Shown here piece after piece: positions 14,013-22,417 of a DNA stretch of 64,000 bases. The translations under genes were made by a program, and so were the position numbers. The stretch lies in the NCBI GenBank assembly GCA_965262725.1, contig OZ253555.1, positions 3,488,001-3,552,000 of the forward strand, in the 5' to 3' direction. The DNA comes from Dehalococcoidia bacterium (lineage in GTDB: Bacteria; Chloroflexota; Dehalococcoidia; UBA2979). The notes beneath the pieces were generated by a model. That model saw only the letters and a program-made list of their open reading frames with translations, had not been told where the DNA came from and did not search any database. How positions within the stretch are numbered: the stretch's first letter is position 1; each line of letters starts with the position of its first letter.

Positions 14013-14811
14013 ATGACGACCGCAGACGCTCGAGACCCGCGTGAGGATCGCGCGGCACTCGAAGGGCTGCTCGGCCCCGCTGAAGCGATCGAGACGCACC
14101 TGTTGCACTGGACGTCGACCCGGTTTCCAGGGGGTGACGACGCCCGATCGGGCCTCCCGTACGACGCCGATCGCCATGAGGCGGTCTATTACCATCACGA
14201 CCCCACCTCCGGCCTCCGAGCGATGATCGCGTTGCACGCGACCGTCCTCGGTCCCGGTCTGGGAGGGGCGCGCTGGCAGCCATACGCGGACATCGGCGAA
14301 GCGCTGACCGACGTGCTGCGACTCTCGGCGGCCATGACGGCAAAGATGGGAGTCTCGGGCCTCGACTGCGGCGGCGGCAAGGCCGTGATCGTCGGGGACC
14401 CGACGACCAAGACGACCGACCAACTCGCCGCCTACGGCCGCTTCGTCGAGCGGCTGCACGGGCACTACGTCACCGGCACCCACGTGGGCACCACCCTGGA
14501 TGAACTGCCAAAGATCGCCCAGCAAACGTCCCATATCGTGGGCCTCAGTCCGACCGGCGATGTCGTCAAGGACACGGCGGAGCCGACGGTGCTCAACGGT
14601 ATGCGCGCGGCGCTGCGCGCCGTGTTCGGAGACGGCTCGCTGGGCGGGGCGTCGCATCGTTGTCATCGGCGTGGGCAAGGTCGGCGGGGAGGTGACGCGC
14701 CGGGCCACCGCCGAGGGCGCTGAGGTCGCGGTAGCGGACCTGCACGAGGACGTCGCCGCTGATCTCGCGAATCAGATCGGCGCCGAACTCATCGCCCTCG
14801 ACGCCGCTTAT
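14013..14811 (+). pseudogene. Leu/Val/Phe dehydrogenase, 5' part (frameshift near 14650; interrupted by IS1380)
   Basis: HEAVYYHHDPTSGLRAMIALH, GPGLGGAR, MTAK, GGGKAVI, then shifted VIGVGKVG...IALDAAY. Confidence 0.85.
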
Positions 14812-15033
14812 CTCGAATCCACCGAACGAAGCTTGACGAGGCGGGGTGCCGGGCTGCCGGAGAGTTCGGCGGGCGTGCCGGCGTTCGCCGGGCGGCGCCG
14901 GGGGCGGGCCGGAGCCAGGAGCCGTCGCTCAGCACCGCTCGGGGGCGCTGAGGGTGCGGGCGCGAGGGTGCGCGAGGCGTGGGCGGGCATGCTGGCGCGA
15001 GCCTCGGACCCGGGTCGGCGCTGTGAGCGGGCG

Positions 15034-16359
15034 TCAGGCCGGGAGCGGTATCGCCCGTAGTCGCGCGAGCGCGGCTGCCAGCTGCTCTGCCCAGGGCCAG
15101 CGCTTCGGGAGGTGCAGAGTCCACCGCCGGGCAGAGCGGGTGAGCCGTCCGGCGAGAGAGAAGTAGCGCCGCCTGAGCGTCCTGGTCGTCATGATTCCCT
15201 CGCCGAGCCCGAGGCGCGCCGTCCAGCGGGCGAGGTTGTGCGCGATCACCTGCACCGCGAGCCACGCCGCGTTCGCGGCGAAGCGGCCCGAGGGGAGATG
15301 GTTCAACCCGACGCCGTACTTGAGGTCGCGGATCGCGTTCTCGATCTCGGCGTGACGGCGATGGTCGGCCTCCAGCTCCATCATCTCCCCCGCGCGGTTG
15401 GTGATGAAGACGTGGTAACTGTAGTCCACGAAGAGCGCGAGCTGTGACCCGGGCGTCGGCGTGACGCGCCGCACGATGAGCCGCACCGCAGTGGCGTCCC
15501 CCGTGTGCTGGAACGGCGTGTAGGTCGTCTCGGCGACAGCGGCGCCGCCCGCCAGCCAGTACGGGATCGGCGTCCAGTCCTCTTCCGGTATCGCCTCGAT
15601 CAGCGTGCGTAGGTTCCGCTGCTGGCGGACCGTGACTGAGAAGCGGACATCCATCGCGCGGCAGGCGGCGACGACGGCGTGGGTGTAGAAGCCGCTGTCG
15701 GCGCGCACCGTGAGCTGCCCGCTCGCCCCGGCGTCGCGCACCCGCGCCACCGTCTCACGCAGGAAGTGGGCGGCCCCCCGAGCGGTGTTGGCACGGCCCC
15801 CGCGCAGCCGGGCCATCAGCACCTCACCCGTCCCGGCCGCCACCGCGAACAGCGGGTGATAGCCCCGCACGCCCGTGTAGCCGTGGTGCCGGGCGCCCTC
15901 TTTCGCCAGTCCGTAGGTCTCGCAGAGCGTCGAGTCGAGGTCGATCGTGAACGGCGCCGCGCCGGGTCCCGCCCCGGCCGCCCAGCTGCGGGCCAGCAAC
16001 TCGCGGCTGACGCGGTCGAGCTGACGGACGTGGCCCCAGCGAAAGCTGCGCAGGAAGGTCCCGAGGGTGGACGGCGCCTTCACGGTGCAGCCGAGCACGC
16101 GCCCGGCGCCGCCTGAGCGCATGGCATCGGCGTCATCGATGCAGTCGCCGCCCGCGAGCGCCGAGGCGATGAGAGTCATCAGCTTGTCGCCGACGTTCGC
16201 CCGCCCCGCTGCGTCACCGAGGTCGAGGTGGGCGTCTGCCAGTTCACGGAGGCCGAGCCGGCCAGCGAGCGTGGCCGGGAGCAGCAGGCCCGCGTCGTCC
16301 ACGAGGCGGTCGTCGTCGAAGGCGATGTGTATCCGGTCGGGGCTGCTCGTTGGTAGCAT
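15034..16359 (-). CDS. IS1380-family DDE transposase
   Basis: APSTLGTFLRSF, TIDLDST, GYHPL, VRADSGFY, HRRHAEIENAIRDLKYG, PSGRFAANAAWL. Confidence 0.93.
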   Translation of the reverse strand: MLPTSSPDRIHIAFDDDRLVDDAGLLLPATLAGRLGLRELADAHLDLGDAAGRANVGDKLMTLIASALAGGDCIDDADAMRSGGAGRVLGCTVKAPSTLGTFLRSFRWGHVRQLDRVSRELLARSWAAGAGPGAAPFTIDLDSTLCETYGLAKEGARHHGYTGVRGYHPLFAVAAGTGEVLMARLRGGRANTARGAAHFLRETVARVRDAGASGQLTVRADSGFYTHAVVAACRAMDVRFSVTVRQQRNLRTLIEAIPEEDWTPIPYWLAGGAAVAETTYTPFQHTGDATAVRLIVRRVTPTPGSQLALFVDYSYHVFITNRAGEMMELEADHRRHAEIENAIRDLKYGVGLNHLPSGRFAANAAWLAVQVIAHNLARWTARLGLGEGIMTTRTLRRRYFSLAGRLTRSARRWTLHLPKRWPWAEQLAAALARLRAIPLPA

Positions 16360-16435
16360 CGAATGGGTGCTCCCTGTGGCTGTGACGTGATTCGTTGAAA
16401 AACCATTGTCCCAGCTACAGCGGAGCACCCATTCG
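16360..16435 (-). promoter_or_regulatory. 14-bp inverted repeat able to occlude the transposase RBS
   Basis: CGAATGGGTGCTCC (16360-16373) and GGAGCACCCATTCG (16422-16435) are exact reverse complements; one arm contains the GGAG just before the ATG. Confidence 0.6.
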
Positions 16436-16532
16436 CAGCCGCGCATGCGCTCTTCTTCGGTTCGCGGTAGGGATGCCGGTTGCCCGGCACCCCCCGCACA
16501 GATCCGGACGTGCCCTCTCGGGCATCCGGCTC

Positions 16533-17861
16533 CTACCTCAAGTGCGTGACGGCAAATCGCTCCGCAGGCCACGGGTGAAGGATGGAGATTCGGGGCCAGT
16601 GTTTCTGGCACAGGGCAAGGATGCGCTCCCACGTGAAACGGTCGCGCTGCGACCGCCGTCGGAGAACGCGCAGCCAGAGCCGCTTCACGACACGAACAAA
16701 CTGCGTGAGCGCCGGCGAGCTGGTCGGCACCGCGTAGTAGCCAAGCCACCCACGCAGTACCCGCCCCAGCCACTGCCCCGTCGTCACGGGGTTGTCGTGC
16801 ATGCGCCGCCACAACTCGGCCTTGATGGCCTTCAGCGTCCGGCGCATCCGCTTCGCAACGGGCTTGCGCCCCAGCCCGAATCTCCCGTCGCGTCGGGTCC
16901 GGCAGTAGTGCGTCATGCCGAGAAAGTCGAACGTCTCCGGTCGGCCCTCCCCGCGCTTCCGCCTGTTCGCCAGCGCGAACCTGCCGAACTCAAGTAGACG
17001 GGTCTTCTCCGGGTGCAGCTCCAGCCCGTAGGCCGCGAACCGCTCCCGGAGTGCCTCCATGAACCGCACCGCATCGCTGCGGTGCTGGAACCCCAGGACG
17101 AAGTCATCGGCATACCGCACGATGTACGCCTCGCCCCGGACCTCCCGCGGTCGCCACTCGCGCGCAAACCAGTCGTCGAGCACGTTGTGCAGGTACACGT
17201 TCGCAAGCAGCGGCGATATCGGCGCCCCCTGCGGCATCCCCCGCACGAAATCGACTTCCGGCTCCGCGTCCATGACGCCGACGCTCAGCCACTTTCGTAT
17301 CAGGCGCAACACCCGCTGGTCCCCGATGCGCATCTCCAGAAACGACATCAGCCGCCCCCGGTCGATGCTGCCGAAGAACTCCCGGATGTCCACCTCGACA
17401 ATCCAGCTGACCTTGCGCCGTTCGACCGCGTAGGCCAGTGCGTCCAGCGCGTCATGCGCCGAACGCCCCGGCCTGAAGCCATGCGAGAAGCCGTAGTAGC
17501 CCGACTCGTAAATCGGGTTCAAAAGATTGTCCACCACCGCCCGCTGAACGATCTTGTCCTCCAGCGAGACGATACCGAGCGGCCGTATTCCCCCGTCCGG
17601 CTTGGGTATCTCTACCCGCCTGACGGGCTTCGCCCGGTACGCTCCACGGTGTACGCGGCCATGCAGGTCGAGCAATCGCTCGTCCAGCCCGTCCCCGTAT
17701 TCTCGCCACCTCACCCCGTCCACGCCCGGAGCCGCATCCCGCTTCAACGCGAGATACGCCTCCCGCAGCGCCTCCGGCGTGATGTGGTGCAAGAGCGCGG
17801 TGAGTTTCTCTCCCGGCTTCCGTTCCACGAACTGCCGTATCCTCTCCGCTCCGGGTGACAC
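16533..17861 (-). CDS. ltrA: group II intron reverse transcriptase/maturase without an endonuclease domain
   Basis: APGVDG, IPKPDGGIRPLGI, GFRPGRSAHDAL, PQGAPISPLLANVYLH, RYADD, HPEKT, FDFLG; no HNH domain at the C-terminus. Confidence 0.95.
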   Translation of the reverse strand: MSPGAERIRQFVERKPGEKLTALLHHITPEALREAYLALKRDAAPGVDGVRWREYGDGLDERLLDLHGRVHRGAYRAKPVRRVEIPKPDGGIRPLGIVSLEDKIVQRAVVDNLLNPIYESGYYGFSHGFRPGRSAHDALDALAYAVERRKVSWIVEVDIREFFGSIDRGRLMSFLEMRIGDQRVLRLIRKWLSVGVMDAEPEVDFVRGMPQGAPISPLLANVYLHNVLDDWFAREWRPREVRGEAYIVRYADDFVLGFQHRSDAVRFMEALRERFAAYGLELHPEKTRLLEFGRFALANRRKRGEGRPETFDFLGMTHYCRTRRDGRFGLGRKPVAKRMRRTLKAIKAELWRRMHDNPVTTGQWLGRVLRGWLGYYAVPTSSPALTQFVRVVKRLWLRVLRRRSQRDRFTWERILALCQKHWPRISILHPWPAERFAVTHLR

Positions 17862-17972
17862 CGCACCCCGACTCTGCGTCCGGACCGTGCCGGTGCTTTG
17901 AGGATTCCTCTCGGTTGGGGCCCTTTGCTCCAGCGACTCCGCCGGGGCTCGCGCCCCCTTCTATGAGGGTCG

Positions 17973-18306
17973 TCTGATCCGCAAGGCCGACGTGGCGGCC
18001 TTCTGCACCGTTCTACCGATCGCGCCTCCCGTCCGCAGCCCTGTGGTGGTTGTCGGTGCCGATGCGAGTGGTGCCGCCGTCTTGTCCCCGGGACGTTGTG
18101 GTGACCGTGCTTCTATTCGCACTCGTCGAGGGGCCGCTCCGGGCCCGGTGCATGATGATCAGCCTGTCTCCAGGGTGTGGGCGCTGCCATCTTGTTCCCG
18201 TCCTCGTTGGGACCAGGGGGTTCCGCAGTCGCCCGCGTGTCGGCATCTCTCGTATCCTCCGAAGCCCACCGGCCGCCCGGTCGCCTCGCTCCTCGCGTGC
18301 TGTCTG
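17973..18306 (-). ncRNA. putative bridge/seek RNA region of the IS1111 element (exact ends unknown)
   Basis: Contains CCCCCT (18220-18215) and GAACAAG (18197-18191) matching the two target arms, and TCATC (18158-18154) and ATAGAAG (18116-18110) matching the circle junction. Confidence 0.7.
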
Positions 18307-19398
18307 CTACGCCGCCTCGGCCGCGCGCGCGTGGCGCAACGGCTCGTAGACCTCCCCGCTCTTCCAGAGCGCAAGCATCAGCACCGCCAGTCGCCTCGCG
18401 ACCGCGACGACGGCACGCTTCTTCGCATTGCCGGCCCCCGACTCCGCGTAACGCAGCCCCCACCTGCGGAGGTCGCTGTCGGGGCCGAAGGGGCCCAGGA
18501 TGTAGTGCGCGGCCTGGTTCAGCACCCGGCGCAGCGCCACGTCCCCTTCCTTCGTGATCCGCAGCTGGGGCTGCCGATCACCGGAATCGCGGCTCCGGGG
18601 CACCAGCCCCAGGTAGGGCCCCACCTCCCTGTTCTTGGGGAAGCGGGCCGGGTCCTCGATGGTGAGGATGAAGGTGAGCGAGGTGATCGGGCCGACGCCC
18701 ACGATCTGCCGCAGCGCGCCGGTCTCCGCGTAGCGCTCGCACATCGCGGCGAGCTTCTTGTCGGCCTGGCGGATCTCCCCGGTCAGCTGCTCGATCTGGT
18801 GGAGCACCGGCAGCAGCGCCGGGCCCAGCTCCTCGGGGATGTGCTCTCTGACCGCGCGGTGGAAGGCCGGCGCCGTGCAGCCCGGAAGCGCCGCGCCCCA
18901 CGCCTTCACCGCGCCCCGGACGTGGTTGATGAACATCGTGCGCGCCCGGACCAGCGCCTCGCGGCTGCGGAGCACCTGGAGGTCCGCCTGCGCCATGGCG
19001 CTTCGGTGCCGGATGGGGAAGAGGAGCGCCGGGTCGAATCGGCCGAGCCGTGCGAGGTGCTCGGCATCGGAGCGGTCGGTCTTGCGCTGGCTGCGCGCGA
19101 TCAGCCTGACCTGCCTCGGGTTGGCGACGATCACGTCGTGACCGAGCTCCGCGAACATCCGGCTCAGCCACGGGGAACGCGGCCCCACCTCCATCACCAC
19201 CCGGGCGCCCTGCAGTGGGGTGAGCGCCCGCGTGAGCGCCGCGGTCGTGGTGCGGACTCGCTCCTCCCGCACGATCTCCCCGTCGCCACCGAGGACGCAG
19301 AGGTGGCTGTAGCGGTCGCTGACGTCGATGCCGACAGTCACGAGCTCCGCATCCCCCACCTTCCTGCTCTCTGTGACATCTGATGTACGCTGTGCCAC
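18307..19398 (-). CDS. IS110-family DEDD recombinase/transposase
   Basis: GIDVS, VMEVG, KTDRSDA (DEDD residues); GVGPITS; YLGLVPRSRDSG; AVARRLA; GTG start after AGGAG. Confidence 0.95.
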   Translation of the reverse strand: MAQRTSDVTESRKVGDAELVTVGIDVSDRYSHLCVLGGDGEIVREERVRTTTAALTRALTPLQGARVVMEVGPRSPWLSRMFAELGHDVIVANPRQVRLIARSQRKTDRSDAEHLARLGRFDPALLFPIRHRSAMAQADLQVLRSREALVRARTMFINHVRGAVKAWGAALPGCTAPAFHRAVREHIPEELGPALLPVLHQIEQLTGEIRQADKKLAAMCERYAETGALRQIVGVGPITSLTFILTIEDPARFPKNREVGPYLGLVPRSRDSGDRQPQLRITKEGDVALRRVLNQAAHYILGPFGPDSDLRRWGLRYAESGAGNAKKRAVVAVARRLAVLMLALWKSGEVYEPLRHARAAEAA

Positions 19399-19946
19399 GG
19401 TCGGTCTCCTACCTCTCTCGGCTCGCCTGAGCCGTTCTCCTGGGCCACCACGTGAGCCCGTGCTTGGAGGGGAAGTATCCCCTCTGAGGAGGGGACCGAC
19501 CCTCATGTCATCTTGTTCGCCGCCTTCATCGCTCGTACGGCCCCATCAGACTGCTGCGCATCGTTCATCATCGGCTACGGTTTACGTCCCTTCCCGACGC
19601 GGTCCCGGCGTACGACTCGTCGGGACAACGCGCAGCTCTCCCAAGTCCCGGCGATAGACGTGTGTGCGTGCATGGGGTCTTCGACACCGTGGGGCCCGAC
19701 CACGACTCGCCAGTAGCGCCGTCGCCGGTATTGCCTTCGACCAATCCAAGAGCCTCGGCACCCCAAATGGCCCTTTCGATGCTCATTAGCCCCGCCCGCA
19801 CACCCCGCTGCCGACGCTTCACAAGCCGCCTCGCGACGACCCGCGCACGGCTCGCGGAATGACATGAGTGGCTAGCTCTTTGCCATAGAGGACTTCCACC
19901 TCCTGCCTACTCGCCAGTTAGCCTGGCGCTCTGGATCAGGGCTTAT

Positions 19947-20545: not shown

Positions 20546-21241
20546 GTGGGGACGCCGGAGCCGGGGCTGTGCGGGGACTGCCGGTGGGCACGGGCGGTCG
20601 TGAGCGACCGCGGCTCGCGCTTCCTGCGCTGCGGCCGCGCCGACGACGATCCCTCGTTCCCGCGCTACCCCGCCCTTCCCGTGCGGGAGTGCCCGGGCTT
20701 CTCGCCGGCTCCGCGTGTGGCCGGAGGGCGCGAGAGGACCGCGAACGGCGGGCCCGGCGCCCGCTCCCCGGGCGTGATCCCGCTCACCCCCGCGGCGACG
20801 GCGGCGGACCCGACCACGACACCCGGGCCGGAATCCACGCTCTTCCGGCGCATCGGCGGCCGCCCGACCGTTGAGCGTCTCGTCGCCGAGTTCTACGCAC
20901 GCATCGAGCGCGACCCCGAGCTGCGCCCGCTCTTCCCCGCGGACCTCGGGCCGGGCCGCGAGAAGCAGGCGCTCTTCCTCGAGCAGTGGCTCGGCGGCGA
21001 GCCGCGCTACAGCGCGCTCTACGGCCACCCGAGGCTCAGGAGGCGCCACTTCCCGTTCGTGATCGATGAGCGGGCCGCCGGCCGCTGGCTGCACCACATG
21101 GCGGAGGCGACGCGGGCGACCGGTATCGCCGCACCCGAGCGCACCGAGATCGTGCGCGGCCTCGGCCCGCTCGCCCGTCACATGACGAACGCCGGTGACG
21201 ACGTGCCGCGGGCTCCGCTCGAGGACCCACGGCTCTCCTAG
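20546..21241 (+). CDS. group II truncated hemoglobin fused to an N-terminal four-Cys domain
   Basis: IGG..VERLVAEFY, LEQWLGGEPRYS, GHPRLRRRH, GRWLHHM (trHbO motifs); N-terminus CGDC...RC...RYPALPVRECPGF. Confidence 0.85.
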   Translation: MGTPEPGLCGDCRWARAVVSDRGSRFLRCGRADDDPSFPRYPALPVRECPGFSPAPRVAGGRERTANGGPGARSPGVIPLTPAATAADPTTTPGPESTLFRRIGGRPTVERLVAEFYARIERDPELRPLFPADLGPGREKQALFLEQWLGGEPRYSALYGHPRLRRRHFPFVIDERAAGRWLHHMAEATRATGIAAPERTEIVRGLGPLARHMTNAGDDVPRAPLEDPRLS

Positions 21242-22414
21242 TGTCCTGATTCGTAATAGCGACAGATAACGGGTATGGTGGCACAGCGGGGTTTTGCCCC
21301 ATGGGGCAGACTCTGGAGTGTCATGAGCACCCGAATCGGACGGCCGACGGTCGCGATCGTCCTGAGCGACGAGGAGCGTGAGACGCTGGAGCGGTGGGCG
21401 CGCCGGCCGACATCGGCCCAGGCGCTGGCGCTGCGCTGTCGCATCGTCCTGGCAGCGGCCGAGGGGACATCGAATAAAGCGATCGCCGCGGCGCTCGATT
21501 GCCATCCGGTCACCGTCGGCAAGTGGCGCCGGCGCTTTGCGCAGGGGCGGCTCGATGGGCTACAGGATGAGCCGCGCCCCGGGGCGCCGCGCACGATCGC
21601 CGATGCACAGGTGGAAGCGGTGATCGTCACGACGCTGGAGGAGCAGCCTCCCAACGCGACGCACTGGTCGACCCGATCGATGGCAGCCGCGGTCGGGATG
21701 TCGCAGTCGGCGATCTTCAGGATCTGGCGCGCCTTCGGCCTGAAGCCGCACCTCGTGGAGAGCTTCAAGCTGTCGCCCGACCCGCAGTTCATCGACAAGG
21801 TGCGCGACGTGGCCGGGCTCTATCTCAACCCGCCCGACGCGGCGGTTGTGCTGTGCGTGGACGAGAAGACCCAGATCCAGGCACTCGACCGCACCGCGCC
21901 GACGGTGCCGATGATGCCCGGCGTCCCCGCCCGCCAGACGCACGACTACATCCGTCACGGCACGACGAACCTCTACGCGGCGCTCGATGTCGCCTCGGGA
22001 TGCGTGATCACGGAGATGACCCCCCGGCACCGGGCTCGGGAGTTCCAGCAGTTCCTCGCCCTCATCGACCAAAGCGTTCCCCATGAGCTGGCGGTGCATG
22101 TCGTGCTCGACAACGTCTCCACGCACCGCACGCCCGCCATCCAGCGCTGGCTCCAGCGCCATCCCCGCTTCACCTTCCATTTCACGCCGACCTACAGCTC
22201 CTGGATGAACCTCGTGGAGCGCTGGTTTGCAGAGCTCACCAGCAAGTGGCTCCGGCGCGGCACGCACCATAGCGTCCCTGATCTGATCCGCTCAGTGGAG
22301 ATGTGGGTCGCCAGCTGGAACGAGAATCCGAGGCCCTTCATCTGGCACAAGTCCGCGGACCAGATCCTTGACAACCTCGCCGGATATCTAGAGCGCATCC
22401 CTGAATCGGGACAC
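21241..22414 (+). mobile_element. IS630-family element
   Basis: TA duplicated (21239-21240, 22415-22416); IRs GTGTCCTGATTC / GAATCGGGACAC. Confidence 0.9.
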
Positions 22415-22417
22415 TAG
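21323..22417 (+). CDS. IS630 transposase
   Basis: HTH N-terminus, THWSTR, CVDEKTQIQAL, YIRHGT, VLDN, TPTYSSWMNLVERWF; the stop codon uses the target TA. Confidence 0.95.
   Translation: MSTRIGRPTVAIVLSDEERETLERWARRPTSAQALALRCRIVLAAAEGTSNKAIAAALDCHPVTVGKWRRRFAQGRLDGLQDEPRPGAPRTIADAQVEAVIVTTLEEQPPNATHWSTRSMAAAVGMSQSAIFRIWRAFGLKPHLVESFKLSPDPQFIDKVRDVAGLYLNPPDAAVVLCVDEKTQIQALDRTAPTVPMMPGVPARQTHDYIRHGTTNLYAALDVASGCVITEMTPRHRAREFQQFLALIDQSVPHELAVHVVLDNVSTHRTPAIQRWLQRHPRFTFHFTPTYSSWMNLVERWFAELTSKWLRRGTHHSVPDLIRSVEMWVASWNENPRPFIWHKSADQILDNLAGYLERIPESGH

Follow-up and report, generated by a model that had tools for sequence, protein, structure and literature searches.

A group II intron with the terminal inverted repeats of IS1380 elements as its probable homing site in a Dehalococcoidia genome

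The locus and its reading

The region analyzed is a 64,000-nucleotide stretch of Dehalococcoidia bacterium (assembly GCA_965262725.1, contig OZ253555.1, positions 3,488,001 to 3,552,000; hereafter the window), in which an insertion sequence (IS) of the IS1380 family carries a group II intron in its left terminal inverted repeat (IR), and the intron in turn holds an IS110-family element. Comparison of sequences across the genome makes it highly probable that the terminal inverted repeats of IS1380-family elements serve as retrohoming targets of an endonuclease-less, RmInt1-like group II intron, which is 1917 nt long in its basic form. All 14 near-identical intron copies were found at IR-type sites, 13 in IS1380 elements or remnants and 1 at a solo IR-like site. 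Coordinates are positions within the window unless marked "genome", and the locus was read on the minus strand (Table 1).

Table 1. Features of the locus. ORF, open reading frame; EBS, exon-binding site; DV and DVI, intron domains V and VI.
Feature	Position	Strand	Basis or remark
Target-site duplication ATAAG, left copy	19946-19942	(-)	sequence comparison; empty-site join
IS1380-family element	19941-14812	(-)	repeats, duplication and empty-site join
Outer 10 bp of the IS1380 left inverted repeat, CCCTGATCCA	19941-19932	(-)	forms the intron 5' exon
Intron 5' segment (intron nt 1-420): GAGCG end, domains I and II, 5' half of domain III	19931-19512	(-)	Rfam, covariation, consensus fold
EBS2, AGGGC	19774-19770	(-)	covariation, sister intron
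EBS1, TGGATT	19748-19743	(-)	Rfam loop, covariation
Candidate EBS3, G	19682	(-)	column scan
IS110-family element, 1554 bp, ATGACATGAGGGTC...GACCCTCATAGAAG	19511-17958	(-)	Pfam, NF033542, skipping contigs
IS110 transposase ORF	about 19332-18307	(-)	DEDD_Tnp_IS110 and Transposase_20
Intron 3' segment: rest of domain III, domain IV with ORF, DV, DVI, end ...CGCGAA	17957-16461	(-)	fold, comparison
Intron-encoded reverse transcriptase/maturase, 442 amino acids (aa), YADD motif	17861-16533	(-)	RVT_1, TIGR04416
DV	about 16533-16500	(-)	predicted fold
DVI, bulged A at 16468	about 16498-16463	(-)	predicted fold
IS1380 body, inner left repeat (CCGAAGAAG...) to right repeat	16460-14812	(-)	sequence comparison
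IS1380 transposase ORF, 441 aa, intact	16359-15034	(-)	NF033539, PF13701
Target-site duplication ATAAG, right copy, 5 bp	14811-14807	(-)	sequence; empty-site join

The host IS1380 element

The full left repeat of the IS1380 is CCCTGATCCACCGAA. The right repeat (TTCGGTGGATTCGAG at 14826-14812, intron-free in the window copy) is given for comparison as CTCGAATCCACCGAA, the reverse complement of 14812-14826; 12 of the 15 bases agree, and the common core is ATCCACCGAA. The intron splits the left repeat between bases 10 and 11, with CCCTGATCCA on one side and CCGAA (16460-16456) on the other. In the 5' exon, the first intron-binding site (IBS1) is GATCCA, and IBS2 is CCCT together with the flanking G; this G, position -11 of the intron target, is the final base of the left ATAAG copy. 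The transposase ORF is spared, as had been proposed in the initial annotation made from the letters of the window, and its product matched NF033539 with 338 bits (cut-off 180) over profile positions 1-419 of 419, and PF13701 with 206 bits.

The empty site was recovered from contigs of two public runs of other studies, which connect 14805 to 19941 and omit 5135 bases. The shorter side of the join was 243 letters in run X16 and only 24 in run X5; a join 16506 to 19665 and several short joins were left unused, their sides being below 31 letters. As the 5135 omitted bases equal the IS with its cargo and one copy of the duplication, the IS insertion is polymorphic and its boundaries are correct. 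Among the sequencing runs listed as containing the locus, there was no RNA run. The insertion disrupts a reading frame whose flanking pieces gave generic NAD-binding matches or none. The broken gene may have coded for a Glu/Leu/Phe/Val-type dehydrogenase.

The intron, its RNA and its protein

The group II intron and its insert comprise 3471 bases, from 19931 (GAGCGCC...) to 16461 (...CCCTACCGCGAA) on the minus strand. When compared with the genome by blastn, the basic intron was 1917 nt long, the remaining 1554 bp being a nested element. The initial annotation had given 16461-19931 as intron; the boundaries stand, and the IS110 at bases 19511-17958 had been overlooked. Its coordinates for the intron, CCCTGATCCA, CCGAA, TGGATT, AGGGC and the partner repeat all hold.

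That this is a group II intron was borne out by RNA and protein matches. Rfam RF02005 (group-II-D1D4-6) matched 19896-19675(-) with 170 bits (cut-off 49) over model positions 1-225 of 225. For the last 85 nt (16545-16461, minus strand), the predicted structure (z = -3.87) has two hairpins: DV, which has a 2-nt bulge, and DVI, in which an A bulges out 7 nt before the intron end. The boundaries, GAGCG...CGCGAA, were fixed by the intact repeats and by alignment to sister introns, which in the same genome have GUGCG...AAU ends. The intron protein matched TIGR04416 with 327 bits (cut-off 300). RVT_1 (126 bits) was the only Pfam match in its 442 aa, and no endonuclease domain was found in this search.

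Over 406 aligned residues (residues 3-408), the protein is 50% identical to an intron protein of Sinorhizobium meliloti pSymB (435 aa). The pSymB intron matches RF02005 likewise, as does a widespread enterobacterial plasmid intron. The 50% protein identity and the common Rfam D1 family point to membership of the RmInt1-like, endonuclease-less lineage (putatively bacterial class D). The 442-aa ORF is open in 10 of the 12 copies with both ends identified; the other 2 carry further insertions. At genome 1521916 and 1875230, intron copies have 2.2 kb and 1.3 kb insertions, respectively, in the reverse-transcriptase ORF.

The nested IS110 element

The IS110 insert occupies intron positions 421-1974. 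Its transposase matched PF01548 (DEDD_Tnp_IS110; 70 bits), PF02371 (Transposase_20; 65 bits) and NF033542 (214 bits, cut-off 140). The element has a non-coding left end of ~180 nt and is without long terminal repeats; AAG/AG is common to the element and its flank, with an AG core. Contigs omitting exactly 1554 bases were present in 4/4 runs. A consensus fold of 8 related introns puts the insertion point at the 5' base of a terminal hairpin; the domain to which this hairpin belongs immediately precedes domain IV and was called domain III because of that position. Compensatory changes occur in the helices of this domain (UA to CG in 4 sequences, GC to CG in 4, CG to AU in 2).

The same IS110 was found at the same intron site in 4 copies, 3 of the window type (the window copy, genome 339648 and genome 3307803) and 1 diverged intron. 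All four IS110 copies with a 100% identical left end lie in introns; copies that are 69-96% identical lie elsewhere. The 3471-nt intron might itself be mobile with its IS110 cargo, so that the three composites would come from retrohoming of a composite and not from three separate IS110 insertions. These composites are indeed 99.8-100% alike across 3471 nt in 3 different IS copies (two left ends and one right end), their protein ORFs are open, and the IS110 sits at a domain tip where the helices could still form. However, no intron single-nucleotide polymorphism is exclusive to the three, each of which has variants in common with different cargo-free copies. The same IS110 at the same site in the fourth, diverged intron, together with the confinement of all identical-left-end copies to introns, fits site-specific insertion. 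From these comparisons we lean towards repeated site-specific IS110 insertion, and retrohoming of the composite is considered less likely. In a comparison aimed at bridge-RNA guides and made with no control, the IS110 left end and its target had only 6-7-nt words in common.

Intron copies and their sites across the genome

A genome search with the first 120 nt of the intron gave 21 matches, 14 of them at 99-100% identity, and each of these 14 near-identical 5' ends is preceded by C[CT]C[TGA][GA]ATCCA. The last 120 nt gave 20 matches, 13 at no less than 99%, and CCG... follows in 12 of the 13. Nine copies stand at the left-end tip CCCTGATCCA, 8 in the IS type of the window and 1 at the left end of an 82%-diverged IS1380. 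Three stand at the right-end tip CTCGAATCCA, so that both IS ends are used, as the initial annotation had expected. One copy is at CCCGGATCCA, the right end of another 82%-diverged IS1380, and one is at CCCGAATCCA, at genome 2475993. This last site was considered as an IS and dropped, there being no transposase or partner repeat, and was counted as the solo IR-like site.

Eight intron-free IS copies carry precisely the rejoined sequence CCCTGATCCACCGAAGAAGAG at their left end; a lack of the expected left-end sequence in such copies was what the initial annotation had named as counting against its reading. Twenty-nine sites of the same pattern are empty, of which at least 2 are probably chance matches outside any IS. 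The genome also contains 65 RATCCACCGR sites, all uninterrupted and many not at IS ends; no intron copy sits at those away from IS ends. With 14/14 copies at IR-type sites, far more than chance would give, the proposal that the intron targets the IR core, rather than having landed there by accident, is upheld. On this distribution of copies, the terminal repeat of IS1380 is very probably a homing site of the intron.

Further arrangements of the two elements were observed. An apparently decayed intron 5' end, 76% identical, lies at genome 403088 behind CCCGGATCCAG, which is an IS1380-like tip with one extra base; it is perhaps an old insertion of the same kind. The nesting is reversed at genome 1949794-1950190, where an IS1380 copy interrupts an intron of the window type (type A) near intron position 387. 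The zone at genome 1.6-2.6 Mb holds a cluster comprising most IS1380, intron and IS110 copies.

Target recognition

Covariation was analyzed in 11 introns of six subtypes with their 5' exons, taken from this genome and from 5 of the 6 other matched genomes labelled Dehalococcoidia. EBS1-IBS1 pairs hold in 93.9% of 66 cells, and compensatory change on both sides was seen in 6/6 pairs; none of 500 shuffles was as high, and shifted registers reached at most 59% of cells. UGGAUU pairs with AAUCCA or GAUCCA in type A, CCCAUU with AAUGGG in type B, CUCGCA with UGCGGG in type C, and UGGUAU with AUGCCA or GUACCA in type F. In the Rfam alignment, the hairpin with TGGATT in its loop corresponds to a variable loop directly ahead of GAAGGCAA. 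This placement and the covariation with the 5' exon agree with its initial assignment to the EBS1 loop.

For EBS2-IBS2, (A)GGGC pairs with GCCC(U) in type A, GAUGC with GCAUC in the sister intron of type B, and AGGGC with GCCCU, one base further out, in type F. G is present at -11 in 13/14 occupied and 15/29 empty sites (Fisher p = 0.015). The sister-intron pairing and the enrichment at -11 favor AGGGC as EBS2, which had been put forward only tentatively. In a column scan for EBS3, alignment columns 182 and 276 emerged as two candidates of similar fit. The G at 19682 (column 276) pairs with exon position +1 in 9/10 informative sequences and was tentatively preferred as EBS3 because column 182 lies within EBS2.

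Insertion guided by structure, as in class C introns (terminators, attC), would have the repeat recognized as a hairpin or single strand and not by its sequence. The lack of an endonuclease domain is shared with class C. Against this, DV is full-sized and the RNA falls in the same Rfam family as the Sinorhizobium intron; eleven or twelve paired bases with compensatory changes account for the site, the 5' exon has no hairpin ahead of the insertion point, and the flank differs from copy to copy. Structural guidance is accordingly given very little credence, and base pairing with the repeat is retained as the probable mode of recognition.

Order of invasion and effect on the IS

An IS tree was made from 12 full-length copies, with two copies lacking the first 93 nt and all fragments left out. 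The 5 occupied IS copies are scattered in it; one is 100% identical to an empty copy and another 99.8% identical to an empty copy. The introns are 99.5-100% alike, and their host IS copies 95.5-100%. The window IS is the most diverged (95.5-97.5% to the others), and its intron is 99.8-100% identical to the other introns. The scatter of occupied copies and the mismatch between intron and IS divergence indicate that the intron entered separate IS copies already in place.

These data already contradict the explanation, held to be extremely improbable, that the intron entered one IS1380 once and was copied by transposition or duplication of an IS-plus-intron composite, the repeat being no homing site: a transposing composite would indeed give mostly copies in a single IS family, with separate flanks for every occupied IS, as observed, but the intron is found in left and right ends and in three diverged IS1380 types, the occupied copies are not mutual closest relatives, the window IS and its intron differ in divergence from their counterparts, and the EBS1 loop covaries with the exon across subtypes.

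The 12-copy tree gave no sign of an intron-bearing IS having transposed. Insertion in the repeat would be expected to immobilize the IS, and the tree is consistent with immobilization.

Relatives and sister introns

Introns with 82-95% protein identity were found in six other genomes labelled Dehalococcoidia, most of them with other targets. Homologous introns at non-IR sites, which the initial annotation had regarded as counting against repeat targeting, are thus formally present (82-89% protein identity), but their changed EBS1 loops match their own exons, so they are read as retargeting, not refutation. Type C introns occupy an apparent DV hairpin of a further group II intron, type D introns lie at CTGG/CCCCACC repeats, and type F introns lie at CATGCCA/TCTGC (the slash marks the insertion point). 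Related introns at genome 734423-736345 and in L004, L006 and L024 lie between GAGCCGTGTGCGGG and AGAACCGCACGTCTGGTTC; by eye, these flanks resemble the two halves of the domain V hairpin of another group II intron, a twintron-type target. The first 300 nt of the intron were matched in only 2 of 60 related genomes searched, many of them fragmented, with one copy of the window type (93%).

In other genomes, the introns at L005:3041 and L025:2985 have an IS1380-tip 5' exon (CCCGAATCCA or CCCTGATCCA) and a 3' exon typical of a different subtype. These mixed exons suggest recombination between intron copies and host genome rearrangement.

The type B sister intron (L002:100-2724, genome 1921199-1923823; more copies at genome 1951737 and 2020542) has the ends GUGCG...AAU, is 83% identical over the first 120 nt and is without a reverse-transcriptase ORF; its opposite strand has an IS110-like ORF. 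In IS1380 copies, its insertion point, in antisense orientation, is between positions 93 and 94, a short way ahead of the transposase start, and the EBS1 (CCCAUU) and EBS2 (GAUGC) of this sister intron match that IS1380 site.

Proposed mechanism and its weighing

Base pairing would let the intron RNA read about 12 nt: GCCC(U) at -11 to -7 would be bound by EBS2 (A)GGGC, (G/A)AUCCA at -6 to -1 by EBS1 UGGAUU, and C at +1 by a probable EBS3 G. Of the 11 5'-exon bases, 10 are the terminal 10 bp of the IS, which makes each IS end a potential site and leaves every inserted copy with the exon sequences for splicing. Reverse splicing of the RNA would then take place at the junction of bases 10 and 11 in the repeat. 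As the protein is without an endonuclease domain, complementary DNA would most likely be primed by nascent lagging strands at replication forks. Insertion would place 1.9-3.5 kb between the IS tip and the remainder of the repeat and leave the transposase gene intact, and the split repeat should disable that IS end for transposition. The window copy would later have been invaded in domain III by the IS110-family RNA-guided element.

Orientation was compared with the direction of replication. The cumulative guanine-cytosine (GC) skew is lowest at 0.41 Mb, the position of dnaA is 0.478 Mb, and the curve is flat at 1.6-2.6 Mb (about 1 Mb around the expected terminus). Outside this flat zone, the intron is co-directional with the fork at 5/5 occupied and 3/13 empty sites (p = 0.0065), a test that overstates the bias, as the empty set includes partner ends of occupied IS copies and is not independent. 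The orientation of the copies may point to priming at replication forks, and the observed direction agrees with reverse splicing into the lagging-strand template as described for RmInt1 (PMC8914252, PMC4615759).

Besides this non-independence, several observations weigh against homing into the repeats by an active group II intron. Over all sites, the fork bias is weak (10/14 vs. 11/29, p = 0.055, terminus assumed at 2.29 Mb). Occupancy is 9/17 for left-type tips and lower, at 3/17, for right ends, although the pairing of the latter with EBS1 is perfect. The thirteenth 3' end belongs to a 588-nt 3' fragment (genome 3381100-3381687) that is followed by CAGCCGAAG, which is not an IR, and the CCCGAATCCA site at genome 2475993 has neither an IS1380 transposase nearby nor a partner repeat within 3 kb. 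The boundaries GAGCG...AA are non-canonical, group II introns usually having GUGYG...AY, and Rfam RF00029 (DV-DVI) stayed below its gathering score on the window intron. Finally, the IS110 in domain III may have killed the window copy.

Beyond retrohoming into IS ends, a chain of three levels, each guided by nucleic-acid recognition, can be pictured, in which the intron disables IS1380 tips, a dedicated, RNA-guided IS110 targets the domain III DNA of the intron, and the ORF-less sister intron attacks the same IS antisense; the intron would then brake IS1380 expansion, and the IS110 would brake or ride the intron. This wider scheme is speculative, and we would sooner bet against it than for it.

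Neighboring genes

On the plus strand, 1.3 kb from the IS1380, another transposase gene (21275-22417, 380 aa) codes for DDE_3 and several helix-turn-helix domains, a set that we take to be typical of IS630-type elements. The product of the ORF at 20546-21241(+), 231 aa long, combines a bacterial-like globin domain at the C terminus (PF01152, 102 bits) with an N-terminal extension of ~95 aa without a Pfam match.

Comparison with known systems

Group II introns with foreign ORFs in domain III are known from fungal mitochondria, where the ORFs are of the LAGLIDADG type. There, likewise, a large insertion in domain III need not destroy the ribozyme; the cargo here differs in being a whole DNA transposon, which the ribozyme may tolerate. 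IS110 elements are RNA-guided (bridge RNA) and insert into repeated sequences (PMC11208160, PMC12288879). The nested element is alike in occupying one precise sequence in 4 copies, and differs from the other IS110 elements in that its repeated target is DNA coding for domain III of a group II intron. Full-text word searches of a limited set of papers turned up no title on IS110 insertion into group II introns; for literature naming a group II intron together with IS1380, they gave no title or abstract on IR homing.

The window copy and its near-identical copies form a clean, many-copy natural example of a group II intron homing to transposon end repeats. The outer 10 bp of the IS serve at the same time as IBS1 and IBS2. 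Wherever the IS lands, the intron would bring along the sequence context for its splicing, and its insertion divides the site bound by the transposase while the transposase gene stays untouched. Natural experiments for studying the mutual restraint of retroelements and DNA transposons are provided by the contrast of occupied with empty sites (position -11, orientation), by an apparently intron-dedicated IS110 and by retargeted relatives.

The site of RmInt1 reportedly lies within a transposase gene, with one site per IS. RmInt1 homes into ISRm2011-2 (IS630 family) and is thought to restrain that IS (PMC5894124). It resembles the window intron in having no endonuclease domain and in homing into an IS, and the pSymB intron belongs to the Rfam D1 family of the window intron; the 50% identity is to the pSymB intron protein, which is possibly neither RmInt1 nor RmInt2. 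The difference is that the RmInt1 site lies within ISRm2011-2 and is not described as a terminal repeat in PMC5894124.

The closest parallel is RmInt2. In S. meliloti GR4, every copy of RmInt2 is located in an inverted repeat of ISRm17 (Martinez-Rodriguez et al., 2014; PMC4615759), an element named ISNCY in PMC10194956. With the IR as target, there are twice as many sites, one of which is always on the lagging-strand template; no pairing is needed at -11, and in plasmid assays RmInt2 retrohomes into both ISRm17 repeats with a lagging-strand bias (PMC4615759). RmInt2 and the window intron are alike in their endonuclease-less RmInt1 lineage, in copies within IS IRs with both ends used, in relaxed EBS2/IBS2 pairing at -11 and in the lagging-strand argument from two sites per IS. 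They differ in the IS (ISNCY vs. IS1380), in the host (alphaproteobacterial vs. closest records labelled Dehalococcoidia) and in the intron boundaries (GAGCG...AA in the window intron), and homing was demonstrated by assay for RmInt2, whereas the window intron is known from sequence alone. The principle of IR homing is therefore already in print with RmInt2 and ISRm17; new here are the IS family, the host lineage, the copy number and the nesting. As both the phylum and the IS family differ from those of the single published case, the strategy would have arisen or spread more than once.

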